From an uncultured Pseudomonadota bacterium (GTDB lineage: Bacteria > Pseudomonadota > Alphaproteobacteria > Rs-D84): a stretch of DNA of 64,000 nt. This document shows, one piece after another, positions 1 through 13,620 of the stretch. The notes under the pieces are model-generated. The model saw only the letters and a program-made list of their open reading frames with translations. It was not told the DNA's origin and made no database searches. Made by a program: the position numbers and the translations under genes. The DNA lies in contig CACWNX010000001.1 in assembly GCA_902762295.1 (NCBI GenBank), positions 532,094 to 596,093 on the forward strand, given 5' to 3'. Numbering within the stretch: position 1 is the stretch's first letter; every line of letters starts with the position of its first letter.

Positions 1-738
1 ATTGTTGATGTTGGTATATCGCGTTCCGGCTTAGTTGGTGTTTTTCGCAATGTTAAACCATTATCATGTGCCCACTTAGCTATACTTTTAACAGAATATT
101 GACCTGTCGCATATTCTTCAAACATCTTTTTAACCAAAGGCGCACGAACTGGGTCCAATGTAATGATTGCATTCTGTTTTTCATCTTCGTCATTTAAATA
201 CCCAAGTGGTGCGAAAGATTGCCATAAACCATTAGACCAATTTGTTTGCATTGAACGGTTAACATTATCGCGTAAACTATCAACATACGCTTGTGCAGCC
301 AATACACTCATATTCCATCGTAATTGTTCTGAAGATGTTGAATGGTCTGTAATGGTTAAACAATCTCTTAAAAAATGAATTTCCAATACAGATTTTTCTG
401 CCAAATCTTTTAATTCAACTGTCTCTTTAAAACTTCGTTGAATACGGTCAACACAGTCTGCAATTATAAGTGTTTTTGACTTTCTCGCTTTTACAAATTC
501 CAAAACTTCTTTAAATCGTTTGCGTTCACCGCGGGTTGAAGATTCAGTAATATTAAATATTTTTATTACTTTTATACCCATTGAATCACAGTATTGTTGA
601 CAATTCATAATCTGTGCGGTTGTAGATTGTCCACGCGCTTGTTCCCTTGAACTAACTCTGGCGAAAATCACCGCTTCTTTTGCTGTTGGACCGCTTGGTT
701 GTGCAAACAAATTATTAGTATTAAAAATATTTTCCATA
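1..738 (-). CDS. Large serine recombinase, N-terminal part. The gene runs off the window start, so it is partial.
   Basis: Minus-strand ATG at 738-736 preceded by an AAGGAG-like RBS. Translation MENIFNTNNLFAQPSGPTAKEAVIFARVSSREQARGQ... carries the resolvase-type catalytic serine motif (RVSSxEQ). The frame stays open to base 1, which is why it is absent from the ORF track. Confidence 0.65.
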
Positions 739-943: not shown

Positions 944-1077
944 TGTATAACATCTTTATTGTTTCATACTGACATCACAACCGTGTCAGAGATATTATAT
1001 AGAATTTGAACCCACAACCAATCTCTACGAACTAAACTTCCAATTCGGACAACAATTTTCCAATTCCGATAAAAATC

Positions 1078-1102
1078 TGGTTTGACCGACGGGGCAGACC
1101 AC
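1078..1102. repeat. Copy A of a 26-bp imperfect palindrome: TGGTTTGACCGACGGGGCAGACCAC.
   Basis: Aligns with the copies at 4528, 8826 and (inverted) 12546. Consensus GTGrTTTGACC-N4-GGGCrCACCAC. Confidence 0.6.
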
Positions 1103-1165
1103 GGTTATTAATCTGAAATAGCATGTTCGGTACAGAATAAACATGTGTGTTTTTGTCCCTTATTC

Positions 1166-1214: not shown

Positions 1215-2255
1215 ATGAAAAAAAAGAATATAATAGATTTAATCAAATACCATGTAGAGGATAACGAACCGGCATTCCGTAATGAAGCATATGAAATTGC
1301 AAAGGACTTTGATTTGAATGGCGATTATCAATTAGCCGAATATATTATGAATTTAATGTCAAGCACGAATTCTTTTGTTCCACAACTGTTAGATAATGAA
1401 TCTTCTTTTTTAAAGAAGGTTGATATCAACACAGAACCATTGCCTTTACCTACCGCAATTAAAGATGATATTGTGGGCATTGTAAATGCGACAACACATA
1501 ATGTGGGGGTTAACAAATTTTTATTTGAGGGTGCCCCAGGCACAGGCAAAACCGAAACCGCTAAGCAAATAGCAAGAATTCTTAACAGGGATTTATTTGC
1601 TGTTGATTTTAGTACTATCATAGACAGCAAATTGGGGCAGACCATAAAAAATATCACGGCATTGTTTGATGAAATTAATTCTGTCGTGCATCCAGAAAAG
1701 GTTATAATTTTGTTTGACGAAATAGACGTGATTGCAATAGATCGAATGAATTCCAACGATTTAAGAGAAATGGGCAGAGCAACATCAACTATGTTAAAAG
1801 GTTTGGACTCTCTTAAAGATAAAATTGTTTTAATAGCAACGACAAACTTATTCACTTCGTTTGATAAGGCGCTTGTCCGCAGGTTTGATGCAGTAATAAA
1901 TTTTGATAGATATGGTCATGACGATTTGGAAGAAATTGCGACAATTATTTTGAACGATTTTTTACAAAAATTCAAAATTCCTGAACGCAATACCAAGTTG
2001 TTCAAAAAAATTTTGAATCTTATGGACAAGATACCATTGCCGGGTGATTTGAAAAATTTATTAAAAATTTCTGTCGCTTTCAGCAATCCTTCGGTGAAGT
2101 TTGATTATTTAAAAAGGTTGTTTAACACAATAACAAAAGAAAAAAACTTGGATATGCAAAAACTTCAATCTATGGGTTTTACAGTTAGGGATATTGAAAT
2201 CTTAACAGGTGTATCAAAAAGTCAGGTTTCCAGAGAATTAAGGGATAACAAATGA
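1215..2255 (+). CDS. ietA: AAA+ ATPase with C-terminal HTH, IetA-like (ATPase partner of an S8 protease).
   Basis: Walker A GAPGTGKT, Walker B ILFDEID, C-terminal HTH (ILTGVSKSQVSRELR). Its stop overlaps the start of the downstream subtilase (ATGA). The two-gene architecture matches the IetAS defence system from memory. Confidence 0.6.
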   Translation: MKKKNIIDLIKYHVEDNEPAFRNEAYEIAKDFDLNGDYQLAEYIMNLMSSTNSFVPQLLDNESSFLKKVDINTEPLPLPTAIKDDIVGIVNATTHNVGVNKFLFEGAPGTGKTETAKQIARILNRDLFAVDFSTIIDSKLGQTIKNITALFDEINSVVHPEKVIILFDEIDVIAIDRMNSNDLREMGRATSTMLKGLDSLKDKIVLIATTNLFTSFDKALVRRFDAVINFDRYGHDDLEEIATIILNDFLQKFKIPERNTKLFKKILNLMDKIPLPGDLKNLLKISVAFSNPSVKFDYLKRLFNTITKEKNLDMQKLQSMGFTVRDIEILTGVSKSQVSRELRDNK

Positions 2256-4468
2256 ATGAATTGTTGCAATTGAAAGGCAGATTTGAACAAAAAGCACGCA
2301 ATACCACTTTGGGAAGCCCTAATTTACCGACCAATGGTGTATTAAATGTGGAACATTTACGTGAATTAAAGTCTGAACTTGAATACCTTTTGGAATATTG
2401 GAAAGGCAACACAGTTATAAATGGTGCTTTGATAAGTGTGTTTTATACAGATATTATTCCAAAAAGCAGAAGAATCACGGGAACCTTTGCTAATGGCAAT
2501 ATTCATTCTAATGATTCTGTGGTTGGTGCCAAATTTATCGACGACGGCAAAACAAAACATGTTATAACACACTATATCTCTTTGGAATTATTAAAGAAAA
2601 CAATCGGGTTTTACGAATTAGCAATAGATGCATTGACGATTTTATTTAAAGGGGTCGTATCATACACAGATATTGATAAGATGAATAAAAAAATAATTCC
2701 ATATGATTACGATGGTCTGACTAAAACTAAATTTTTAAACATCATTATTGATGCGTATTATGTTGAAAAATTCGGAATAAATGTTCCAGAATACAATAAA
2801 AAGGAAAATTCAATTATTACAATTTATCAAACGGATATTCCAACTGGTTTGTTAATGGATCGTTTGGGAATAAAACTTCCGCCGACACGTATTATAGACC
2901 AAACAACAATGCTATTAACTCCCGATCAAATTGGTATTCTTTTTGATAAAGCCCCATATCTTGTGTCAATGTCTGTGACGGATTTGTCCAAATTCGATGA
3001 TATTGAATTAAAATTCACACAAACAAATAATACTATTGCGTCGATACCGTCCCCGAGTACAGAGCCTGTTATTGGTGTTATAGATACTCTTTTTGATAAT
3101 CGGGTCTATTTTTCTGAATGGGTAGAATACAAAGATATGGTATCTGCAGACATACCAAAAAAACAATCGGATTATGAACATGGGACAGCTGTTTCATCTA
3201 TCATAGTTGATGGTCCAACATTTAATCCAGAATTGGACGATGGCTGTGGCAGGTTTAGAGTTAGACATTTTGGCGTTGCAACTGGTGGTTCATTCAGCTC
3301 CTTTTCCATTTTGCGAGCCATCAAAGAAATTGTGGCAGCAAACAAAGATATAAAAGTATGGAATCTGTCATTGGGATCACAGTTGGAAATTAATGAAAAT
3401 TTCATATCACCAGAAGCCGCAATTCTTGATTCCATTCAGGCTGAAAATGATATTATTTTTATAATAGCTGGTACAAATAAAATAGACCCAAAATCAAAAA
3501 ATGTATTGATAGGTGCACCTGCAGATTCCATCAATTCGCTTGTCGTGAATGCAGTGACCCCTAAAAATTTGCCAACTGATTATTCCAGACGTGGCCCAGT
3601 ATTATCTTTTTTTATGAAACCTGACGTGAGTTATTATGGTGGTACAGATGACAACCGAATTCGGGTATGTACACCAACTGGTGAAAAACTTGTGCAAGGA
3701 ACATCCTTTGCGGCGCCTTGGATTGCCAGGAAAATGGCGTATTTGATTCATATTGCCGGTTTAACCAGAGAAGTGGCGAAAGCTTTGATTATAGATGCGG
3801 CAACTGGATGGAAAAAAGAAACAGATACAACAGAATACATCGGGCATGGCGTAGTCCCGGTCAAAATAAATGATATTGTTCAATCCCCAAAAGACGAAAT
3901 AAAATTCTTTTTGTCTGGCAAATCTGAGAAATACGATACCTATAATTATAATATACCTGTTCCAATTTCCAATGAAAAACATCCATTTATTGCGAAAGCA
4001 ACTCTGTGTTATTTTCCTGCGTGTTCAAGAAATCAAGGGGTGGATTATACCAATACGGAATTAGATATTTTATTTGGCAGGATTGGCAACGATAATGCGA
4101 TAAAACCAATTAATAACAATTACCAATCGGAAGTCGGACATTTCATGTATGAAAAAGAAGCCAGAAAATATTACAGAAAATGGGACAACATTAAACACAT
4201 TCGAGAAACAGAAAATAAAAACAAACCAAAGAAAATTTATACCGGGATGTGGGGAATTAGTATAAAAACAAAAGAACGCTTAGAACAAAAATTTGGCGAG
4301 GATTTGAAATTTGGAGTAGTTATAACACTAAAAGCAATTGATGGTGTAAACAGAATTGAAGATTTTATACAGCAATGTTCTTTACGCGGTTGGTTGGTTA
4401 ATAGAATCAACATTGAAAATAAAATTGATATTTATAATGCTGCAGAAGCTCATGTTGATTTTAGTTAA
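2252..4468 (+). CDS. ietS: S8 subtilisin-like serine protease, IetS-like.
   Basis: Asp motif VIGVIDT, His motif HGTAVSS, Ser motif GTSFAAPWIA in the canonical order, after a ~250-aa N-terminal extension. Translationally coupled to the upstream ATPase. Confidence 0.7.
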   Translation: MNELLQLKGRFEQKARNTTLGSPNLPTNGVLNVEHLRELKSELEYLLEYWKGNTVINGALISVFYTDIIPKSRRITGTFANGNIHSNDSVVGAKFIDDGKTKHVITHYISLELLKKTIGFYELAIDALTILFKGVVSYTDIDKMNKKIIPYDYDGLTKTKFLNIIIDAYYVEKFGINVPEYNKKENSIITIYQTDIPTGLLMDRLGIKLPPTRIIDQTTMLLTPDQIGILFDKAPYLVSMSVTDLSKFDDIELKFTQTNNTIASIPSPSTEPVIGVIDTLFDNRVYFSEWVEYKDMVSADIPKKQSDYEHGTAVSSIIVDGPTFNPELDDGCGRFRVRHFGVATGGSFSSFSILRAIKEIVAANKDIKVWNLSLGSQLEINENFISPEAAILDSIQAENDIIFIIAGTNKIDPKSKNVLIGAPADSINSLVVNAVTPKNLPTDYSRRGPVLSFFMKPDVSYYGGTDDNRIRVCTPTGEKLVQGTSFAAPWIARKMAYLIHIAGLTREVAKALIIDAATGWKKETDTTEYIGHGVVPVKINDIVQSPKDEIKFFLSGKSEKYDTYNYNIPVPISNEKHPFIAKATLCYFPACSRNQGVDYTNTELDILFGRIGNDNAIKPINNNYQSEVGHFMYEKEARKYYRKWDNIKHIRETENKNKPKKIYTGMWGISIKTKERLEQKFGEDLKFGVVITLKAIDGVNRIEDFIQQCSLRGWLVNRINIENKIDIYNAAEAHVDFS

Positions 4469-4527: not shown

Positions 4528-4553
4528 GTGGTTTGACCGATGGGGCGCACCAC
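4528..4553. repeat. Copy B of the 26-bp palindrome: GTGGTTTGACCGATGGGGCGCACCAC.
   Basis: Abuts the stop codon (4557-4559) of the serine recombinase gene. Confidence 0.6.
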
Positions 4554-4556
4554 AAA

Positions 4557-5156
4557 TTACCAACCCATACGATTTATAAAATTTGATACGGTTGCGGGTG
4601 ATACAGACATCATTTTTGCAATACGGTATTTTGTGAATCCTGCATCTAACCAATTTTTAATCTTTTTGGTATTGCGTGATAATTTCAATTTCTTTGATTG
4701 GGCTGCAAAGGGGCGTCCTAATCTTTTACCGGTTGCACGAATACTGTCCAGGGATGCTTTGGTGCGTTGTGATATTAAATTTCTCTCTATCTCTGCCGAA
4801 AGCCCAAAGGCAAATGCCATAACTTTACTTTGAATGTCGTTTCCTAATCTGTAATGTTCCTTTAATGTCCAAACCTGGCAATTTTTATTCAAACAGGTTT
4901 CTAAAATCCGCATAACTTCCAACAATGAACGACCAAGGCGTGAAATTTCAGCAGCAATCAAAATATCTCCGTCTTGTAATTCATCCAATAATTGCCCAAG
5001 TTTTCTTTTGTTTAATGGTTTTCTTGATGATATTGTTTCTTCAAGCCATCTATCCACTATTATATTGTTTTGATGTGCAAATTGTTCAATTTCAAAATGT
5101 TGATGTTCGCATGTTTGTTTATTTGATGATACACGAATATACCCAATAACTGCCAT
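4557..5156 (-). CDS. Small serine recombinase, DNA invertase/resolvase family (Hin/Gin/Tn3-resolvase-like).
   Basis: N-terminus MAVIGYIRVSSNKQ with the catalytic Ser. C-terminal HTH (YRIAKMMSVSPATVSNFI). 199 aa. Confidence 0.85.
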   Translation of the reverse strand: MAVIGYIRVSSNKQTCEHQHFEIEQFAHQNNIIVDRWLEETISSRKPLNKRKLGQLLDELQDGDILIAAEISRLGRSLLEVMRILETCLNKNCQVWTLKEHYRLGNDIQSKVMAFAFGLSAEIERNLISQRTKASLDSIRATGKRLGRPFAAQSKKLKLSRNTKKIKNWLDAGFTKYRIAKMMSVSPATVSNFINRMGW

Positions 5157-5417
5157 TTTTTCTAATCCTTTGGTTGATTAACTGTTTCAATTTAATAGAA
5201 CGTTTGTGGAATAAGCACCAAGAAACTAATCCGTTAAAACTTTAAAATCTTTGTCTGCCTTGGTTTTCTAAGGATTTTTAATTATAAAAATTTATTCATA
5301 AAAAATTCTGAAACTAAAAAAAATATGTTGATTTTATCGTTGGTTTGTTTTATAGTCCTATTCGTGGATAAAAAGAAGTATTCACAGTTTTTAATATTAA
5401 AAATAAAAGGAAAAAAA

Positions 5418-7331
5418 ATGAGACAATCAAAAACAACTTTAAAAGAATTAACCGCTCAATATCGTAGCGTGTTAAAACGTGCTTTTATTGCTGGTGTTAT
5501 GGCTGTCGCAACCGCTAATAGCGCAAATGCAGCAATTACACCTAGTGATATTAGTACCATTAACGATAGTATCAATATGGTGCAATCGGATGGAAATTAT
5601 ACAACTAGCATGGGTGATTTTAATGCTGGCACAACCGATTATAGCACTGCGGCAGGATATGGTTTGTACACATACGACCATGATAATAATCCAGAAACAG
5701 CAGAAATTGCATTAACTACAAACGATGGTAGTGAAACATTAGATAATACAGTATTCACATATACAGACAATACTGGTGCAACAACTAACTTAGGTGATAA
5801 TGCAACTGGATTTACAACAAGTGATTTTACAGGTGCGGCCGGAACAATAGATGTTGCTGATGGTACAACTGATTTGACAACATTAGAAGCAAATACAACA
5901 ACCGTTGGTTTAGGAAATTATCAATATATGGCTAACTTTGATAACTCTGGTGATGCATTAACAGCTTTGACAGAGGATGCACCAGAATTGAGTTCTTTCC
6001 ATAATGATATTACTTTAACAACAGGTGCAATCACTGTTAACGGAAACGACGAAGTAAACAAACCAAGTATCGACCAATATGGTTTTGCTATTACATTGCA
6101 TGATGGCAGCACAGGAAACTTTGATTTGGTTTATAATGAATCTACACACTTGTATTCTTATAATTATGATGGCGATGTTGTATTGGATGCAGCAGATATT
6201 GCAGCTGCGGATGCACAAGTTTCATCACAGTCTGCAAATTTAATTGCTGACACAACATTGTTCAATGGTGCTGTTGCGACAAACACAACCAATTATAACA
6301 GTGCAGTTGGCCATTATAATACTGTTCATGGTGTTTATGAATCTGATACAAATACTCAAAGCACATTAAATACTAATTATGGTAATTATGAAACAAGCTT
6401 TGCAGAAGCACAGGCGAATCAAACTGCTGCTGCTGGAAACTTATCAGAAGCACAAGGGGCTTATGCTGCTGATTTAGCAATATATACTCCGGTTGCAACT
6501 GCATATAATAACTATGAAAATTCTTTGGGTAAAAGTATAGACGCAAAGGATGAAACTGTATTAACAAGTGCAAAAGATTATGCAGATAGTTTAGCAGATA
6601 ACTATGATGCAGCGGGTTCAGCTGATGCCGAAAAGACACGTGCACAAGGTGAAGAAACCGCTATCCGTAGTGAATTTGCAGCAGCTGATACAACTCTGCA
6701 GAACAATATCGATGCAGAAACAAGTCGCGCGCAAGGGGAAGAAACCGCTATCCGTAGTGAATTTGCAGCAGCAGACACTACTTTGCAAAACAACATAAAT
6801 GCAGAAGCAACAGCTCGTCAAGCTGCAGATACTACATTGCAAGCTAACATCGATGCCGAAGCAAGCACTCGTGCAGCTGCTGATACAACTTTGCAGAACA
6901 ATATCGATGCTGAAGCTTTAGCTCGTGCTAATGCTGATACGGCATTGCAGAACAATATCGACAACGAAGTTGCTCGTGCTACAGCACAAGAAGCTGCTAT
7001 CCGTGGCGAAATTGCCGCTGCTGATGCTATGACATTGTCAAAAGCTAACTCTTACACAGACAGCCGTGTGAACACACTTGAAAAGAATGTATCTGGTGGT
7101 GTTGCAGCAGCTACAGCCTTATCATCAGTAGAAGTATCTAATGTAAAGAAAGGTGAAGTATCCGTTGGTGGTGGTTACGGATATTACAACAGCCAATCTG
7201 CAATGGCATTAGGTGCAGCTATGGGCTTGTCTGATAGATGGTCCATCAATGCAGGTGCCGGTATTGCAAGTGGTGATAAAACACAAGTAGCATTCCGTGC
7301 CGGTACAAACTACAAATTTAAATTGTTTTAA
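5418..7331 (+). CDS. Trimeric autotransporter adhesin, YadA-like.
   Basis: RBS plus ATG at 5418 (MRQSKTTL...). Long extended signal peptide ending ANSANA. Thr/Asn-rich passenger. Coiled-coil stalk with 14-26-aa repeats (AADTTLQNNIDAE...). C-terminal ~70-aa YadA-type anchor ending ...AFRAGTNYKFKLF. Confidence 0.7.
   Translation: MRQSKTTLKELTAQYRSVLKRAFIAGVMAVATANSANAAITPSDISTINDSINMVQSDGNYTTSMGDFNAGTTDYSTAAGYGLYTYDHDNNPETAEIALTTNDGSETLDNTVFTYTDNTGATTNLGDNATGFTTSDFTGAAGTIDVADGTTDLTTLEANTTTVGLGNYQYMANFDNSGDALTALTEDAPELSSFHNDITLTTGAITVNGNDEVNKPSIDQYGFAITLHDGSTGNFDLVYNESTHLYSYNYDGDVVLDAADIAAADAQVSSQSANLIADTTLFNGAVATNTTNYNSAVGHYNTVHGVYESDTNTQSTLNTNYGNYETSFAEAQANQTAAAGNLSEAQGAYAADLAIYTPVATAYNNYENSLGKSIDAKDETVLTSAKDYADSLADNYDAAGSADAEKTRAQGEETAIRSEFAAADTTLQNNIDAETSRAQGEETAIRSEFAAADTTLQNNINAEATARQAADTTLQANIDAEASTRAAADTTLQNNIDAEALARANADTALQNNIDNEVARATAQEAAIRGEIAAADAMTLSKANSYTDSRVNTLEKNVSGGVAAATALSSVEVSNVKKGEVSVGGGYGYYNSQSAMALGAAMGLSDRWSINAGAGIASGDKTQVAFRAGTNYKFKLF
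6620..6975 (+). repeat. Intragenic near-identical tandem repeats within the adhesin stalk. Unit ~78 bp; two copies nearly perfect, with ~3 further degenerate copies.
   Basis: The protein segment RAQGEETAIRSEFAAADTTLQNNIDAE is duplicated. TTLQ(N/A)NIDAEA repeats occur seven times. Confidence 0.8.
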
Positions 7332-7365: not shown

Positions 7366-7400
7366 AATCCCTATATGCAAATATGGGGATTCGTTTTTTT
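7366..7400 (+). terminator. Rho-independent terminator after the adhesin gene.
   Basis: Hairpin AATCCCTATATGCAAATATGGGGATT followed by T7. Confidence 0.6.
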
Positions 7401-7722
7401 AGTTAACGCTTGCCACGGCCTGAATTTGAAGCATTCATACATGTTTTATTGAACTTCTTTGCATAAGTATTGTTGCCGTTTACCATTTGCGCATAAAATA
7501 CGACGATAGCTATACAATTTAAACAGTTTATCTTTAACTATATCAATTTAATAGTAAATACGACTCTGTTTTGCTCCGAAAGACTAAAAATAGTCAAAAA
7601 TCCTTAAAAATAGGGCTTTCGGGACTCTTTTTTTGCATTTTTTAGTTCGCGAAGGCCTAAAAACACGACATAATTTAAGTGTAAAAGAAGCAAAAAAGAA
7701 CCTAAAAACAAAGGAGTATACA

Positions 7723-7998
7723 ATGCTTAAACTTTACAAAAACTGGTTAATTCAAAAAGGTTATTCTACCACAACGCAGAATAACAAACCATCGACCGTT
7801 TACGACTATACCACATCGATTATTCGTGTGTGTAATTGGGAATCAAAGACGATTGAACAGTTAGCAGAATCTATTTCGACGATATTACCGCAATATACAA
7901 TCGGTGAACATTCTGCGCGTGGCCGTATGAAAAGCCGTGCTGTTCGTTGCAGTGTTAGGGCTTTCTCTAAATTCTTAATTGAAACACAGGTGGCTTAA
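7723..7998 (+). CDS. Hypothetical small protein (91 aa); weak resemblance to an integrase N-terminal SAM-like domain.
   Basis: AGGAG RBS 7 nt before the ATG at 7723. Pattern YKNWLIQKGYSTTTQNNKPSTVYDY. First gene of a three-gene plus-strand operon. Confidence 0.45.
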   Translation: MLKLYKNWLIQKGYSTTTQNNKPSTVYDYTTSIIRVCNWESKTIEQLAESISTILPQYTIGEHSARGRMKSRAVRCSVRAFSKFLIETQVA

Positions 7999-8332
7999 CA
8001 TGAATATGAATAAGATTGCTGAATTAAACGATAACCTGCGAAAGAATTTATTTACACCTGGGCAAAACCAGGTGTTTATATCGCATGGTGTTAACTCTTT
8101 GCCACATATTGAACGGGCTCGGTTGTTAGACAAAGTCCAAAATTTTAATGATTTTAATCACGCAAACGACCCATATAAAGAACACGATTTTGCACGCATA
8201 GAACACAGGGGAATAAATTATTTGTTCAAAATAGATTATTACAACCTTGATATGGATGCCGGTTCTGATGACCCAAGTAATCCAGATGTTACCACGCGTG
8301 TTTTAACGATAATGCGCGCAGACGAATATTAA
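7999..8332 (+). CDS. Hypothetical protein (~110 aa).
   Basis: ORF overlaps the end of the upstream gene. A start at 7999 (MNMNKIAELN) is plausible. No recognised motif. Confidence 0.4.
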
Positions 8333-8347
8333 ACAAAAGGAAATGAT

Positions 8348-8524
8348 ATGATAGCAGCCGTTCAACAAGTTGGAAATAATGTTCGTGTTTTAAACGAACA
8401 GGGTTTAACTCTGTTTATGAAATGTGGCGAATTAGTTGGATACACATCTCAAACCATCAGCATAAGATTAAATTCAACCGTTTGGACTTATGATTCTAGT
8501 GGCCGATGTTTGTTTGGAAGGTAA
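8348..8524 (+). CDS. Hypothetical small protein (58 aa).
   Basis: Compact ORF after an AAGGAAA RBS, followed directly by a strong terminator. Confidence 0.35.
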   Translation: MIAAVQQVGNNVRVLNEQGLTLFMKCGELVGYTSQTISIRLNSTVWTYDSSGRCLFGR

Positions 8525-8530
8525 ATATAA

Positions 8531-8565
8531 AACCTGCTGATTTTGAGTTAGCAGGTTATTTTTTA
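8531..8565 (+). terminator. Rho-independent terminator.
   Basis: AACCTGCT-N11-AGCAGGTT hairpin plus T8. Confidence 0.7.
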
Positions 8566-8676
8566 TCATTGTTCCAAATTTAGCCCAGAATCACCCCAAT
8601 TTGATTTGGTTTATAACTTATATCCGGTTAGTATTTGGGGCAACCACACTTGGTTTTTGGAACAATATGGTATGTT

Positions 8677-9366
8677 TCAGGTGATTGCGATACTATTGAT
8701 TAGATAATCTGGCTTATAATTTGCAATATTCAACCTTATCGGTAATGTGGCTATTTGATACCATAAACAAACGATAAATAATGGCTTTAATACAAATCGT
8801 TTAACCCATTTTACGAATTTGGATTGTGGTTTGACCTGTTGGGCGCACCACTTTTGTTGTTTCTTTTCTGGGATGTTAAATATAGTCGTTGTGGTTGATA
8901 GACGGCCTTTTATATCATGCTCAGTTTTGATTTGTTTGACGCAATAAAAAAATAAATGTTCCGGTGTAAAGGTTATAGGTTCCAATTCAAATGTTTGGTG
9001 TGTAAGGCGCAAATCATATTCGGTTCTATCCAGCGCACCTTGTAATTGTTCGGTTGTATATTTGCAGTTATAAATCAATATGTGAAAATGATAACCAAAC
9101 CATGAATTTTTTTCGGCAATACATATCATTGGCAGCGGTTTTTTGTTCCAGTGGTTCGGTCTAAGGCATTTTTGAAATCGTTTTATGACGGCTTTTAATT
9201 TGGCGTTATATTTATCTAAACCGCCATTTCGCCAATTCAATGGTAGTTGCACCGTTAAAAAGTGGCTTGGGTGATATTGCGATATGGCGTTTATTAACTT
9301 GACTTGGGTTGGTGTTGGTTCGCATTTTTCTTCGTTCAGCCATTGATTAACTTTATCTTGATACAT
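8677..9366 (-). CDS. HUH-endonuclease-superfamily protein, rolling-circle replication initiator (Rep)-like.
   Basis: Motifs in Rep order: motif I HFLTVQL (FLT), motif II GYHFHILIY (HUH), motif III FFYCVKQIK (YxxK). The 3' end of the ORF reads through palindrome copy C, so the true C-terminus is uncertain. Confidence 0.5.
   Translation of the reverse strand: MYQDKVNQWLNEEKCEPTPTQVKLINAISQYHPSHFLTVQLPLNWRNGGLDKYNAKLKAVIKRFQKCLRPNHWNKKPLPMICIAEKNSWFGYHFHILIYNCKYTTEQLQGALDRTEYDLRLTHQTFELEPITFTPEHLFFYCVKQIKTEHDIKGRLSTTTTIFNIPEKKQQKWCAQQVKPQSKFVKWVKRFVLKPLFIVCLWYQIATLPIRLNIANYKPDYLINSIAIT
8826..8851. repeat. Copy C of the 26-bp palindrome: GTGGTTTGACCTGTTGGGCGCACCAC.
   Basis: Same orientation as copies A and B. 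Lies inside the 3' end of the Rep-like ORF. Confidence 0.6.
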
Positions 9367-9553
9367 TTTTTAAACCTTTATTTAATGGGTATAAAAATTT
9401 ACATAGGACAGCGCGAAACAGGTCCCATTGAATCTAAACAGCAAAGCGTTATGATGGACGCGATGCCCAATTTAATAGAACCGATTTTTTACAGGATTCA
9501 TGTCGCAGAAATTTTCCGAAATATAAAAAATCCCCCAACGAAGGGGGACTGTA

Positions 9554-11341
9554 TCAGAAATCCTTGTTCTGAATCTGATAAATCAGTTGCGCGAAGCACC
9601 GATTTACGACAGTTGGACAGTAGTGTTCGCCCAGCATTGTTCTGAATTCATCATCCGTCACCACAATATCACCGTGTTGTATTGCGGTTGGGTCGGATTC
9701 AGGAATCGGACCATTTTTGCACCAGATATTACCTTTGCCGTCTCTGATTTTGATTTTTTCAGGTAATTCAAAATCTTTCGGCATACCCATCAACACCAGA
9801 ATTTCATAAAGTGTTCTATGCCGTGCGTCAGACTGTGTTCCATTTGTTCTGCAACGACCAGCCGGAAAATAATGCGCCGGTGCACCAGAGTGTGAAGATT
9901 CGCCAGTAATTGTTGGGGCCGGTCTATCACCATGTGCGCGTTTGATATTCACTTTCTCTATGCTACCGTCCGAATTATGAACTAATGCCAAAGTGTTTTT
10001 GCCTGCCTCGGTATTTTTCAACGCTTCAATAATTTCTGGTGCCAAATCCAGCGCATAATGCAATCGATTAACATCCATTCTTTGTTCGCCGGCTTCAATA
10101 GAAGGAATATCCTGCAAACACAGTTCTTCTGAAATTTTGAATTCATCTGGTTTGGGAAATTTCCAGACATTGGCGTCGGTTATTTCGGTTGTACCAAGAA
10201 TCTTTTGCACAAATTCTTTTTTGATACCCAGAATTATCGCACGATTACGGTTTTCGCCTGTGCCATAGCAATCTGCGTTAAGATAATCAATGTTGGTGAT
10301 GTAGCCCAATTCGTCGGCCTTATCTTTGATGTAATCATAGACGGTATCATAATTTTCATCTTTAATTGTGTCTGGACAACCTCCCAAAAATTCGGGAACG
10401 TTTTCACACATAAACATATCGTTATTATCACCGATATCCTCCAAAAATTGCATACCATACATGACCAATGAAGCATCAACCCGATTGACATTTTGTGTAC
10501 CCGCCTTGGAATAGGACTGACACGGCGGTGACATTAACACCACGCGGCATCTCCGCTTTTTGTGTGCTTTCAAAATCTGTTTGTATACGCTTAGGTTGGC
10601 TATACTACCCGTTATGACTTTACAACTTGGGTACAATTCTTGATGAATTTGCGCCCGTTTATCATGTAATTCGTTTGCTACGGCAACATTGATGTTCAAA
10701 TTTTTCAACAGGCACGTGCCTAAACCGATGTTTGCAAATAAACTGGTTGCACGCACTGTTTTATCAAATTTAACATTTGCTGGCAAAACAATATTTGAAA
10801 ACGCACCATGACATGTGTGTGTTGCCAATTTGGGATTTTTCTTTTTACAGCCCCTTTTTATTGTCAAGGCGCTGTTGATGCTTGGTACATCACCATTGGC
10901 CTTGGCTTCTGCTTTGGCTTTCGCCACACAGTCTGCGTCCAATTCACAGATGCTATGCCAGCGTTTGCCTTTTTTAAACCCATGCGCTTCCATTAATTTA
11001 TCTTTTGCTATCCGTGCTGCTGTAACTGCTGCGCCACTGCCTTTTGTGGGGCCAAGCGCTCTGACTTTATCCGCAATTCTGACGCCTTCATCCAATACTT
11101 TTCCAGCAATATCTTGCGCAAGGTCCAGCAAGTAATTATACAATTCTGGTTCCATATATGCGCAAGACCTCATAAGTTCAATTGCCGCATCAGTCGCTAT
11201 CATTCCCTGTGAAATATAGTCCGCTGTTCCAGCAGGTGTGGCAGGTAAAGCGGGTGGTGCCACAGTTATTACTGCTGGGGTTGAAGTTGTTAATGTTGGT
11301 GCTGTTGCACCGCTTGAAATAGATATACTTTTTGTTGCCAT
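9554..11341 (-). CDS. DNA (cytosine-5)-methyltransferase with a ~190-aa N-terminal extension.
   Basis: Motif I LFANIGLG, motif IV PPCQSYSKAG (the PCQ catalytic Cys), motif VI CENVPEF. The N-terminal region MATKSISISSGATAPTLTTST... is low-complexity. Confidence 0.85.
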   Translation of the reverse strand: MATKSISISSGATAPTLTTSTPAVITVAPPALPATPAGTADYISQGMIATDAAIELMRSCAYMEPELYNYLLDLAQDIAGKVLDEGVRIADKVRALGPTKGSGAAVTAARIAKDKLMEAHGFKKGKRWHSICELDADCVAKAKAEAKANGDVPSINSALTIKRGCKKKNPKLATHTCHGAFSNIVLPANVKFDKTVRATSLFANIGLGTCLLKNLNINVAVANELHDKRAQIHQELYPSCKVITGSIANLSVYKQILKAHKKRRCRVVLMSPPCQSYSKAGTQNVNRVDASLVMYGMQFLEDIGDNNDMFMCENVPEFLGGCPDTIKDENYDTVYDYIKDKADELGYITNIDYLNADCYGTGENRNRAIILGIKKEFVQKILGTTEITDANVWKFPKPDEFKISEELCLQDIPSIEAGEQRMDVNRLHYALDLAPEIIEALKNTEAGKNTLALVHNSDGSIEKVNIKRAHGDRPAPTITGESSHSGAPAHYFPAGRCRTNGTQSDARHRTLYEILVLMGMPKDFELPEKIKIRDGKGNIWCKNGPIPESDPTAIQHGDIVVTDDEFRTMLGEHYCPTVVNRCFAQLIYQIQNKDF

Positions 11342-12545: not shown

Positions 12546-12571
12546 TTATCAAAATTGTGGTGTGCCAAGTG
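12546..12571. repeat. Copy D of the 26-bp palindrome, inverted orientation: GTGGTGTGCCAAGTGGGTCAAATCAC.
   Basis: Its reverse complement GTGATTTGACCCACTTGGCACACCAC matches the consensus. Confidence 0.55.
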
Positions 12572-12865
12572 GGTCAAATCACATTTCACTGAATAGCATG
12601 CATTAAAAAATTTGACCCTTCGCGTAAAGGCCTTTGAAATTTTTTTAATTTACAGTTAGCGATTTGATAACCGGATGTACGGTGGTGTATGGGGGGCGGC
12701 GGGTTCGTATCGGTGGCATCCGCGGTACCGGTTGCCGATATTGCCAGACGGGGTACATCCACTACCTTGGTATGAGTAGATATTCGTATTTATTTAAAAA
12801 TAGTTTGATTTCTTTGCCAAATTGCAACAAATCTTTGATTTCATTAGTTCGTGAATTGCACAGAT

Positions 12866-13443
12866 GGCCCTGCCAAAAATTAAAAATACCCGAATGGGTA
12901 TTTTTTATTTTTGTTCAACCCCCGGGTTTGAACCGGGATGGGTGCGAGGCGATAGTCGCAGCACCAATACGAGAATACACAATTAGAAAAATCATAAAAA
13001 CGGGGTCTGTTATGACGAGTTTTTATAGATTTTTATTATTGCGTATCGAGGAGGCGAGTGAAAATCCGAGTGGGACAATTAAGAAAATCTTAAAAAATCG
13101 ACTTTGGAGAATTTTTTTGATTTTATTTATTGCGTATCGAGGAGGCGAGTGAAAATCCGAGTGGGGCTGCCAGAAATCAAAAATGCCACCTTGGGTGGCG
13201 TTTTTTATTTCTCTTGGCGCCCCACGAGGATTGCGCAAGAATGTCAACGGCACGACAAGTGCCGTTTGAAAACGCAGTTTTCGTGGGCGGCCGCCCACAA
13301 GACATGCATGGCGAAAACGCAGACGAACAATTAGCAAACCCGCAAAAACGGATATGTTTAATAGAGTTTTTGCACATGGGTTTGATTATTGTTTGTCAAG
13401 GAAGCGGTGGGGCTGCCAAAAATCAAAATCCCGATTTTTTACG
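12866..13443 (+). repeat. Repeat-rich GC-rich non-coding block. It holds two ~45-bp direct repeats (13031-13074 and 13122-13167, TTATTGCGTATCGAGGAGGCGAGTGAAAATCCGAGTGGG). It also holds three copies of a GGGCTGCCAAAAATCAAAAAT-hairpin-T-run module (12866, 13163, 13408).
   Basis: Read directly from the sequence. The ORF-track entries here are short, overlapping and mutually antisense, and are judged spurious. The modules look like small-RNA 3' ends or terminators. Confidence 0.6.
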
Positions 13444-13620
13444 AACAAACTAAGCGATTTTTTCAAAGAAAACCGGGCTTTTTTATTGTCTACATAACAG
13501 TTCACAAATATCAACCGTAAAAACGCACTACTTATATCAATTCTCGAACTTTTCTTATAACAAATTGATTTATTAAATATTTTTGATATAATACCCAGCA
13601 GGATAATCTGGAGAATAAGA

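Follow-up and report, generated by a model that had tools for sequence, protein, structure and literature searches.

A 229-aa open reading frame (8677..9366, minus strand, ATG start) in the window, which is the whole 64,000-nucleotide stretch of DNA that was analysed, is predicted from its sequence and modelled structure to encode a real, intact, single-tyrosine Rep-class HUH DNA-nicking enzyme without a helicase domain. It counts among the core genes of a chromosomal island of roughly 14 kb, whose host is a gut alphaproteobacterium resembling Candidatus Enterousia and whose insertion at a tRNA-Glu gene was brought about by a large serine recombinase. An earlier note on this DNA had recognized a HUH Rep-like protein of about 229 aa, and both the length and the assignment are borne out by the open reading frame, by profile matches, by invariant motifs, and by an AlphaFold2 model that matches HUH Rep domains. 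Its homologues comprise 15 cluster representatives that are close and about 118 that are distant, and dN/dS in the protein core is 0.05-0.14; by both measures the reading frame is far beyond chance.

The motifs follow one another in the order FLT, HUH, YxxK, as the earlier note had read them, and occupy conserved rather than variable columns of a family alignment of 87 sequences with pairwise identity down to 17%. Motif I (HFLTVQL, residues 35-41, 9244..9264, minus strand), which reads PTHFLTxQLP in the family consensus, is the first strand of the model; the HUH motif H93-F94-H95 (9082..9090, minus strand) lies within GYHFHILIY (residues 91-99); and Y141-C-V-K144 (8935..8946, minus strand) lies within FFYCVKQIK (residues 139-147). 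E85 (codon at 9112..9114, minus strand), H93, H95, and Y141 are invariant in the 87 sequences, and K144 is nearly so. The model (pLDDT 86.2) has a beta-alpha-beta-beta-alpha-beta-alpha layout, with H93 and H95 on strand 91-98, E85 on the adjoining strand 80-87, and the tyrosine helix after the HUH strand, Y141 being at the end of helix 135-142. After the catalytic core (residues ~20-165) come a disordered linker (~166-181) and, towards the C-terminus, a hydrophobic helix (182-207). In a PDB profile search, the E..HUH..Y..K series was aligned and E85 was matched with the glutamate of MVM NS1 and WDV Rep; on the strength of its invariance and its position in the model, E85 is likely the third metal ligand, and Y141 is the predicted catalytic tyrosine.

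The top Foldseek matches of the model in the PDB are HUH nuclease domains (SIRV1 ORF119, the Rep proteins of B19, AAV, and MVM, PCV2 Rep, pMV158 RepB, and WDV Rep), which are found in nine of the first ten and 16 of the first 20 ranks, with probabilities of 0.94-1.0 but E values of only 2e-3 to 2e-2 and TM scores of 0.3-0.5. The structural matches in BFVD are microvirus Reps and PF23343 proteins. PF23343 (REP_ORF2-G2P) is also the only consistent match of the 87-member alignment within the list of 25 Pfam families (39 had matched). It is matched by all 15 close members (the window protein and 14 close homologues) and by 81 of 87 distant members, with a best E value of 1.1e-8; three close homologues carry it as a precomputed domain; and the match runs from helix 1 up to and including the HUH strand. 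With 22.4 bits (E 1.5e-4), the window protein falls short of the gathering threshold of 27.8.

The earlier proposal of similarity to pC194-family Reps fails on the same searches. The window protein and its 14 close homologues gave no match at E<=1 to Rep_1 (PF01446), Rep_trans/MobT (PF02486), or Y1_Tnp (PF01797, the profile for RAYT and IS200-like proteins), against which a comparison had been proposed, and for the 87 relatives none of the three is among the 25 Pfam families (of 39 with matches) that were listed at E<=0.1. The Rep_2 and IS91 profiles were likewise absent among the Pfam matches listed for the protein and its relatives, and one family member has a weak RepSA match. Scans of the protein with NCBIfam, PHROGs, and PADLOC gave nothing meaningful, and a PDB sequence search with the close-family profile gave only spurious Hsp90 matches to the tail. 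No relatives were found by tblastn among the 72,556 plasmids of PLSDB or among GenBank phage records, or in a scan of IMG/VR; thus, the protein has no experimentally characterized homologue. A literature search on PF23343 and DUF3768 found no papers. The protein is accordingly placed, by sequence, in an uncharacterized and unnamed branch adjoining PF23343, the Reps of ssDNA phages; its relatives occur in Ca. Enterousia and other gut alphaproteobacterial metagenome-assembled genomes.

Of the large serine recombinase gene, the window contains the first 245 codons (3..737, minus strand); the rest lies before the start of the window, as does the left end of the island. The right end is at 12863..12875 (plus strand), where ATGGCCCTGCCA repeats the tRNA-Glu 3' end, GTGGGGCTGCCA, in degenerate form; similarity to the related island L010 ceases at ~12863, and tRNA-Glu 3' fragments are present at and past this end. 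The 3' end of the large serine recombinase gene overlaps tRNA-Glu in islands L001 and L018 and tRNA-Met in L013, and a tRNA-Gln gene is located at the equivalent end of L010. The features of a tRNA-targeting integrative island are therefore found: a recombinase abutting a tRNA gene, in relatives, and a partial tRNA repeat at the other end. Of the earlier suggestion that the region is an integrated rolling-circle replicon or mobilizable element, the integrated mobile element stands, but what it amounts to is a tRNA-targeting serine-recombinase island rather than a plasmid-like replicon.

The HUH gene has the neighbours that had been described for it. Directly upstream on the same strand is a gene for a C5 cytosine methyltransferase (9554..11341, minus strand), and facing it is a convergent three-gene operon (7633..8524, plus strand) that encodes a 92-121-aa protein (7633-7998), a DUF3768 protein (7979/8000-8332, the likely true start being 8000), and a 58-aa protein (8348-8524). 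Further away are a gene for a 199-aa small serine recombinase with a resolvase domain and HTH (4557..5156, minus strand), which is present in at least seven related islands, some of them using a tyrosine integrase, and the IetAS cargo. The DUF3768 model is confident (pLDDT 93.8), and no solved structure resembles it; PDB sequence searches with DUF3768, the 121-aa protein, and a 269-aa protein were empty, and Rfam found nothing in the window between 7300 and 13700.

The methyltransferase and HUH genes facing the genes of the 92-121-aa and DUF3768 proteins form a module in every related island that has DUF3768. The module is kept down to 30% identity of the HUH protein and was found again when starting from DUF3768 homologues, and the linkage of methyltransferase to HUH gene is retained in distant elements too. 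The most distant relatives are encoded in minimal integrase–HTH_17–HUH elements beside tRNA genes. In the loci examined, the HUH gene is always in one or the other neighbourhood (methyltransferase/DUF3768 or integrase/HTH) and never an independent multi-copy unit. None of the examined contigs that carry it, complete metagenomic ones included, is circular.

Two non-coding blocks beside the HUH gene are conserved. The upstream block (9440..9520, minus strand), a candidate origin or control region, contains AAAAATCGGTTCTATT (9474-9489), of which the GTTCTAT core is invariant across three divergent clades; AAAAATCGGTTCTATTAAATTGGGC is a stretch of the upstream region 9440-9535. The downstream block (8560..8625, minus strand) lies between the HUH stop codon and a bidirectional terminator hairpin (8527..8557) shared with the convergent DUF3768 operon, and is kept in elements with HUH proteins only ~30% identical. 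ssDNA folding upstream of the HUH gene gave no significant hairpin or structure. Over ~65 nt, the upstream control region of the recombinase gene is paralogous to that of the HUH gene, suggesting that the two genes are co-regulated. An upstream sequence, CGTTCTATTAAATTGG, is identical at 12 of 16 positions, by count, to the nick region of M13, GTTCTTTAATAGTGG (M13 sequence verified), but M13 gpII belongs to PF05144 and not PF23343, so the likeness may be due to chance. The GTTCTAT block is a candidate origin, and a better one than the 26-bp palindrome discussed below, although it could be simply a promoter or a small antisense open reading frame.

The function to which about an even chance is given, from the gene content and predicted active site, is that the HUH protein nicks the excised island circle for rolling-circle replication, which would also yield ssDNA for transfer; sequence cannot separate these two roles. 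The large serine recombinase would excise the island as a circle, and the HUH protein would nick one strand at an origin near its own gene, with E85, H93, and H95 holding the metal and Y141 becoming covalently joined to the 5' end. The free 3'-OH would then prime host rolling-circle synthesis, by which the excised circle may be maintained or amplified and from which ssDNA for transfer could also be supplied, and the small resolvase would reduce multimers. There is precedent in the integrative mobilizable elements (IMEs) of streptococci, which encode proteins resembling rolling-circle replication (RCR) initiators; IMEs with proteins of the Rep_trans, Rep_2, PHA00330, and Viral_Rep types are documented (PMC5357655).

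By analogy with IMEs, the protein could instead be mainly a mobilization relaxase, which would nick an oriT of the excised island and pilot ssDNA through the type IV secretion system of a helper, replication being incidental. This is a serious possibility, if an unlikely one. The island has genes for integration and excision and no transfer apparatus, which implies that it would need to hitch-hike; the minimal integrase–HTH–HUH elements match IMEs in gene content; Rep-like relaxases have been proposed for streptococcal IMEs (PMC5357655); and the orphan-looking C5 methyltransferase beside the HUH gene would protect incoming DNA. However, no VirD4- or TcpA-like coupling protein was seen in any of the loci examined, a conjugative helper of these uncultured hosts is not known, and the HUH-before-Tyr order is that of Reps and not of classical relaxases.

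Some of the other readings turn on a 26-bp imperfect palindrome, GTGGTTTGACCTGTTGGGCGCACCAC, that the earlier note placed at the 3' end of the HUH gene and took for a possible double-strand origin or nick site. The palindrome is real (8826..8851, plus strand) and spans eight whole codons (W173-P180) together with the last base of codon 172 and the first of codon 181, but it is in the low-confidence linker, in the last quarter of the gene and not at the extreme 3' end. The island has four copies in all: a second separates the large serine recombinase gene from the IetAS cargo (1077..1102, plus strand), exactly where similarity to related islands begins; the third is at the other border of IetAS, 3 bp past the resolvase stop codon (4528..4553, plus strand); and the fourth, in inverted orientation, is about 70 bp upstream of the 269-aa gene (12557..12582, minus strand). 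There is none in the other 51 kb of the window. Each site consists of two imperfect inverted half-sites of ~12 bp around a central dinucleotide, and in the reference copy (4528-4553) nine of 13 possible base pairs are formed, as counted from the sequence. The hairpins predicted for the four sites by ssDNA folding of both strands are weak (-2 to -6.5 kcal/mol); relative to shuffled sequences, one of the eight strands reaches z -2.5, and the other seven do not go beyond z -1.7. None of the distant HUH elements examined (L006, L008, and L012-L016) has the sites. The architecture fits a serine-recombinase crossover site, but L012 and L013 keep a ~81% identical resolvase gene although they lack the sites. 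The palindrome is unlikely to be the origin or nick site of the HUH protein; the four copies, their locations at cargo borders and upstream of a recombinase gene, the weak folds, and the absence from distant elements make it more probably a putative binding or crossover site of a recombinase or regulator.

Two further interpretations of palindromic sequence were discarded: a sigma-70 promoter, proposed from the TTGACC half of the site, was rejected because the orientations of the sites disagree with those of the neighbouring genes, and another 26-bp palindrome (7366-7391) proved by exact search to be unique and unrelated to the repeated site.

It is improbable that the HUH protein acts on the 26-bp sites in the manner of IS91/Helitron or IS200/IS605 enzymes, initiating at one copy and terminating at the next in the same orientation to release or exchange segments such as the IetAS cassette. 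Three of the four copies do share an orientation, two of them bracket IetAS, and islands L001, L004, and L018 have a second site in the same orientation 706-707 bp upstream of the in-ORF copy, so placed that the two frame the promoter and catalytic core. The in-ORF copy is identical in the window and in L001-L003, L011, L017, and L018, even though its flanks differ in L001-L003 and L018, and synonymous divergence is two to four times higher after this site than before it. Against such activity are the weak hairpins, the absence of sites from the distant elements, a degenerate in-ORF copy in L004 (seven mismatches), and the lack of matches to the Y1_Tnp and IS91 profiles, as well as the fixed neighbourhood of the HUH gene, in which nothing suggests independent mobility; moreover, half-sites around a central dinucleotide fit a dimeric protein that binds dsDNA, and the island encodes two serine recombinases. 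Nor does the synonymous divergence define a HUH core cleanly bounded by sites: the contrast dissolves into patchy windows, and the high-identity stretch also takes in the 3' end of the methyltransferase gene, leaving the site-bounded block a weak lead. A broader proposal, that the four sites are borders of exchangeable modules at which IetAS-like defence cargo is swapped, the Rep gene itself being split by one site with a core-plus-promoter unit of ~707 bp in L001, L004, and L018, is doubtful, whether the driver would be the HUH enzyme or the small serine recombinase. If true, module exchange at the 26-bp sites would amount to a cassette system that resembles integrons but relies on other enzymes.

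There is little to recommend the island as a satellite of an ssDNA (micro- or inovirus-like) phage, with Rep-made ssDNA circles packaged by a helper phage: PF23343 and the best BFVD matches are indeed replication initiators of ssDNA phages, and minimal integrase–HTH–HUH elements of only a few kb would fit small ssDNA capsids, but capsid, Zot-like, and morphogenesis genes are absent in and near every locus examined, the IMG/VR and GenBank phage records hold no relatives, and islands of 12-14 kb exceed the capacity of microviruses. Least credible of all is an integrated pC194-type rolling-circle plasmid with the palindrome as its double-strand origin, which would suit a small, helicase-less protein with canonical motif order but is contradicted by the absence of Rep_1 and plasmid matches, by integration through a tRNA-targeting serine recombinase with att remnants, and by a palindrome present in four island copies and not specific to the HUH gene.

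The islands form a family of small integrative elements, not described before, in gut Alphaproteobacteria that are uncultured, and the HUH protein probably serves them in replication or transfer. Anti-phage systems are found in these islands (IetAS, OLD-like ATPases, AAA_21/RloB, and type III restriction-modification). The protein and its fixed partners (C5 methyltransferase, DUF3768, and small resolvase) are usable as a marker for such islands in metagenomes. Since the family has no characterized member and is absent from plasmid and phage databases, a nicking assay would define a new Rep specificity, which could double as a HUH tag, and would shed light on the movement of defence cargo among hosts that cannot yet be grown in culture.

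Among known systems, the PF23343 initiators of ssDNA phages, including microvirus Rep/VP4-like proteins, have profile and BFVD structural neighbours in common with the HUH family, which differs in that its genes lie on chromosomes, within islands, and have no phage genes near them, and in that the window protein scores below the cut-off. SIRV1 ORF119 and the Reps of parvoviruses (AAV Rep, MVM/B19 NS1) and CRESS viruses (PCV2, WDV) have the same fold and active-site layout, with a glutamate on the strand adjoining the HUH strand and a single tyrosine (YxxK) on the next helix, but identity to them is 11-17% and TM only 0.3-0.5, and where parvovirus and CRESS Reps have a fused SF3 helicase, the HUH protein has a short hydrophobic C-terminal helix instead. 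The plasmid initiators pMV158 RepB (Foldseek PDB rank 21) and Rep_1 of pC194/pUB110 are, like the HUH protein, compact, helicase-less, and dependent on a host helicase and polymerase; unlike them, the HUH family has no Rep_1 or Rep_2 match and no plasmid relative, and its predicted metal-ligand pattern (E plus HUH) would differ from that of RepB.

IS200/IS605 TnpA and RAYT proteins are similar to the HUH protein in size (a core of 150-170 aa), in their HUH-then-Tyr order, and in their association with imperfect palindromes, and RAYT 4er8 is a weak structural match (Foldseek PDB rank 45). Unlike Y1 transposases, the HUH family has no Y1_Tnp match and never forms an independent multi-copy unit; its motif I (FLT) is not known as a feature of Y1 transposases, and its YxxK would take the place of a Y1-type motif. 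Classical conjugative relaxases have the tyrosine N-terminal to the HUH or 3-His motif, the reverse of the arrangement here, with HUH at residues 93-95 and the tyrosine at 141. The relaxases of IMEs (PMC5357655) and RepSA of actinomycete AICEs (pSAM2) share with the HUH protein its setting, a small integrated element in which the gene of a HUH initiator adjoins those of an integrase and an excisionase; the island differs from these in protein family, in host phylum (Alphaproteobacteria), and in the genes that accompany the initiator, which do not include an FtsK/TcpA-type transfer protein but comprise the C5 methyltransferase, DUF3768, and the small resolvase.

The open reading frame at 8677-9366 (minus strand, ATG start, 229 aa) lies, as the earlier note had placed it, between a three-gene operon on its left (plus strand: 7633-7998; the DUF3768 gene, 7979/8000-8332; 8348-8524) and a C5 cytosine methyltransferase gene upstream (9554-11341, minus strand), and shares a bidirectional terminator (8527-8557) with the convergent operon. 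The three motifs previously read in its product, HFLTVQL (residues 35-41), GYHFHILIY (residues 91-99) and FFYCVKQIK (residues 139-147), are present in the order described. A word-indexed search recovered 15 close homologues, none of them named and all from metagenomes, and an exhaustive profile search yielded 118 cluster representatives. The only invariant columns in an alignment of 87 sequences, with identity down to 17%, are E85, H93, H95 and Y141; W73, K144 and F163 are near-invariant, and PTHFLTxQLP is kept in the consensus. The motifs therefore sit on conserved positions, the comparison that the earlier note had offered as a means of refuting it. Family members have a single tyrosine, within YxxK, and lack a helicase domain. 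The gene has been maintained, as indicated by dN/dS of 0.05-0.14 over codons 1-170 and of about 0.2 in most comparisons of the tail (range 0.13-0.52). An AlphaFold2 model built from the 87-sequence alignment (pLDDT 86.2, pTM 0.72) has the order strand (FLT), helix, strand (E85), strand (HUH), helix, strand, helix (Y141). By alignment and model, the product is an HUH protein with an intact, conserved Rep-class active site.

Proteins of the Candidatus Enterousia clade carry a C-terminal tail of about 55 aa with a hydrophobic helix (LKPLFIVCLWYQIATLPI, residues 182-207, 8746-8823 on the minus strand), which may be a membrane or oligomerisation element; the tail is absent from family members of 150-175 aa and, within the clade, exists in two forms that differ greatly (…LINSIAIT and …PDYINYIPVLC). 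One Candidatus Enterousia metagenome-assembled genome (MAG) has a truncated HUH gene matching residues 43-229 only (L011:2435-3000, L001-L028 being loci with related islands or elements from other genomes); island right-end sequence lies about 1.1 kb upstream of it, so the methyltransferase segment has been deleted there.

The HUH gene belongs to a tRNA-integrating island whose core always includes it. The closest genomic relatives (96-97% identity) are from Candidatus Enterousia MAGs, and relatives at 30-36% identity come from other gut alphaproteobacterial MAGs, with three copies in one of them; MAG Horse_feces297 has three islands on three contigs (L012, L014 and L015), each with an HUH gene and DUF3768, and L015 has a tyrosine integrase and adjoins tRNA-Val. 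From left to right the island encodes a large serine recombinase with Resolvase and Recombinase domains (3-737, minus strand, cut by the window start), an IetAS defence pair (1215-4468; AAA ATPase and S8 subtilase, matching the IetA/IetS anti-phage system at E 4e-39 and 5e-65), a small resolvase (4557-5156), a YadA-anchor trimeric autotransporter adhesin as cargo (5325-7331), the DUF3768 operon, the HUH protein, the methyltransferase and a 269-aa protein. The adhesin gene contains tandem repeats of 54 and 87 nt (6624-6968), and a copy 88-95% identical is found in L013, an otherwise divergent island. Among complete relatives, the recombinase gene overlaps at its 3' end with tRNA-Glu (L001, L018) or tRNA-Met (L013), and tRNA-Gln stands at the equivalent end of L010, indicating that related recombinases of different islands target different tRNAs. 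Similarity of the window to L010 ends at about 12863, directly followed by ATGGCCCTGCCA, a degenerate tRNA-Glu 3' end; with the recombinase at the left, this gives an island of about 14 kb. Just beyond the right end are fragments of the tRNA-Glu 3' end (12864-12875, 13143-13172 and 13407-13418), two 54-nt repeats (at 13021 and 13112) and a remnant of about 147 bp (13407-13553) resembling the 3' end of the L001/L018 recombinase gene; taken together, these resemble scars left by repeated integration at a single tRNA-Glu site.

In every related island with DUF3768, the methyltransferase and HUH genes, in that order, face genes for a 92-121-aa protein, DUF3768 and a small ORF, across HUH identities of 30-93%. 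The same module was recovered independently from DUF3768 homologues, the adjoining ORFs matching the HUH profile at E 1e-61, and the methyltransferase-HUH adjacency recurs in two distant contigs. At least seven module-bearing islands have the small resolvase, and the integration gene encodes a large serine recombinase in some islands and a tyrosine integrase in others. Cargo varies (OLD-like ATPase, AAA_21 with RloB, type III restriction-modification, Slam-like proteins); in L001, L018 and L028 the IetAS slot is taken by an OLD-like ATPase, and in L010 by different cargo. DUF3768 (8000-8332, plus strand), the constant partner of HUH, has more than 170 homologues and a confident AlphaFold2 model (pLDDT 93.8) that resembles no solved structure in a Foldseek search (best E 0.66), and a literature search found no paper that mentions it. 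The most distant HUH members occur by tRNA genes in minimal elements, where HUH is accompanied only by a tyrosine integrase and a small HTH_17 protein. The HUH protein is the sole candidate replication or transfer enzyme of all these islands.

We give about an even chance to the HUH protein being the replication initiator of the island. After excision of the island as a circle, the protein would nick the circle near its own gene, becoming covalently linked through Y141; host enzymes would carry out rolling-circle synthesis, and the small resolvase would resolve multimers. The product may serve maintenance, conjugative mobilisation or packaging. Rep-like relaxases of integrative and mobilizable elements (IMEs) have a proposed role in conjugative mobilisation (PMC5357655), and the HUH protein might likewise be primarily a relaxase, which we consider rather unlikely; unlike in relaxases, HUH precedes the tyrosine in this family, the Rep-class order.

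The earlier note had proposed an imperfect 26-bp palindrome (GTGGTTTGACCTGTTGGGCGCACCAC, 8826-8851) as the double-strand origin or nick site. This copy occupies codons 172-181 of the HUH gene (W173-P180), the linker between the catalytic core and the C-terminal helix. By position weight matrix the island has four copies, three oriented alike and one inverted (12557-12582), and the other 51 kb of the window has none. The consensus, (A-tract)GTGGTTTGACC-GAYG-GGGCRNACCAC(A-tract), consists of two imperfect half-sites flanking a central dinucleotide. Close relatives have sites at equivalent positions, upstream of the recombinase gene and inside the HUH ORF, with an additional site between the methyltransferase and HUH genes in L001, L002, L004 and L018; none was found in L006, L008 or L012-L016. 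Two copies bracket the IetAS cargo: on the recombinase side, similarity to L001 and L018 starts exactly at the site, and on the other side all islands diverge immediately past the resolvase stop codon. The recombinase-upstream site is followed by about 65 nt with paralogous sequence upstream of HUH in L001, L004 and L018, suggesting a shared promoter or operator, and in the window and L010 only the site has been lost from the HUH-upstream copy. The paralogous stretch reads [26-bp site]ATTTTTnTCnnATTnGGAAAnTT...CGA (window 985-1108, minus strand; L018:9803-9925, L001:4015-4140, L004:2432-2555), and the clade of L013-L015 has a different shared box (ACTATTTAGAAATTTTTT) in the same double role. 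Single strands of the site fold weakly (-2 to -6.5 kcal/mol), one of eight reaching z -2.5 and the others no better than z -1.7. Bracketed cargo, similarity border, paralogy and weak folding together speak for a binding site of a dimeric dsDNA-binding protein, be it a recombinase or a regulator common to the recombinase and HUH promoters, rather than for an HUH-specific Rep origin; action of the HUH protein at these sites is improbable.

The in-ORF copy is identical in the window, L001-L003, L011, L017 and L018, with diverged flanks in L001-L003 and L018, and is degenerate in L004. Past it, identity to L001 falls to about 50%, from about 85% before it, and dS increases 2-4 fold, in a patchy signal. 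A recombination breakpoint at this copy is possible, and the sites as cassette borders are the most novel possibility left.

Two conserved non-coding blocks are better candidate origins than the 26-bp site. The HUH-upstream region keeps 90-100% identity between islands in which the genes beside it have reached synonymous saturation (dS 1.1-1.9). Within it, AAAAAT(C/G)(G/C)GTTCTATT (window 9474-9489) occupies the same relative place in three clades at 30-37% HUH identity. The second block, about 60 nt (…CAAATCAAATTGGGGTGATTCTGGGCTAAATTTGGA…, 8560-8625, minus strand), lies in the 3' untranslated stretch from the HUH stop codon to the terminator and is retained in islands with only about 30% HUH identity. 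Neither block contains a significant hairpin. Alternatively, the upstream block may act as a promoter or belong to a short antisense ORF. Such an ORF (MGIKIYIGQRET..., 9385-9540, plus strand) runs through the region; gene callers annotate versions of 51-81 aa in L001, L002 and L004, and in L004 a pair of compensating 1-nt indels, separated by 15 nt, restores either frame or spacing. The sequence at 9474-9489 (CGTTCTATTAAATTGG) agrees at 12 of 16 positions with the M13 gene II nick region (CGTTCTTTAATAGTGG, NC_003287 5774-5788), perhaps by coincidence, since M13 gpII falls in another Pfam family (PF05144).

PF23343 (REP_ORF2-G2P) is the sole consistent Pfam match of the HUH family, found in 15 of 15 close and 81 of 87 distant members (best E 1.1e-8); the window protein, at 22.4 bits, lies below the cut-off of 27.8. 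The window protein and its close homologues have no Rep_1, Rep_trans, Rep_2 or Y1_Tnp match at E<=1, nor do the 87 relatives at E<=0.1 among the 25 listed families of 39 matched. The HUH family is best seen as an unnamed branch adjoining PF23343. Top-ranked Foldseek matches in the PDB are almost all HUH nuclease domains (SIRV1 ORF119, B19/AAV/MVM Rep-NS1, PCV2 Rep, pMV158 RepB and WDV Rep among them, with RAYT lower), at probability 0.9-1.0 but E only 2e-3 to 3e-2 and TM 0.3-0.5, and, in a search with the HUH sequence profile, E..HUH..Y..K lines up weakly with MVM NS1 and wheat dwarf virus Rep (E 0.06-0.2). Among viral models, microvirus replication initiators and proteins annotated as PF23343 match best (E about 1e-5 to 1e-4); no relative was found in IMG/VR, or by tblastn in 50,697 phage records or 72,556 plasmids, and an ssDNA-phage satellite is a very improbable identity for the island. 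The pC194-type plasmid envisaged in the earlier note can hardly be correct, the likeness to that family being contradicted by the lack of a Rep_1 match beside consistent matches to PF23343.

Glutamate is the probable third ligand of the HUH family, as it is in parvovirus and CRESS Reps. Integrative elements with HUH initiators are already known, namely AICEs and Firmicutes IMEs; what is new here is an uncharacterised HUH family, in a new host group and with a distinctive fixed gene set.
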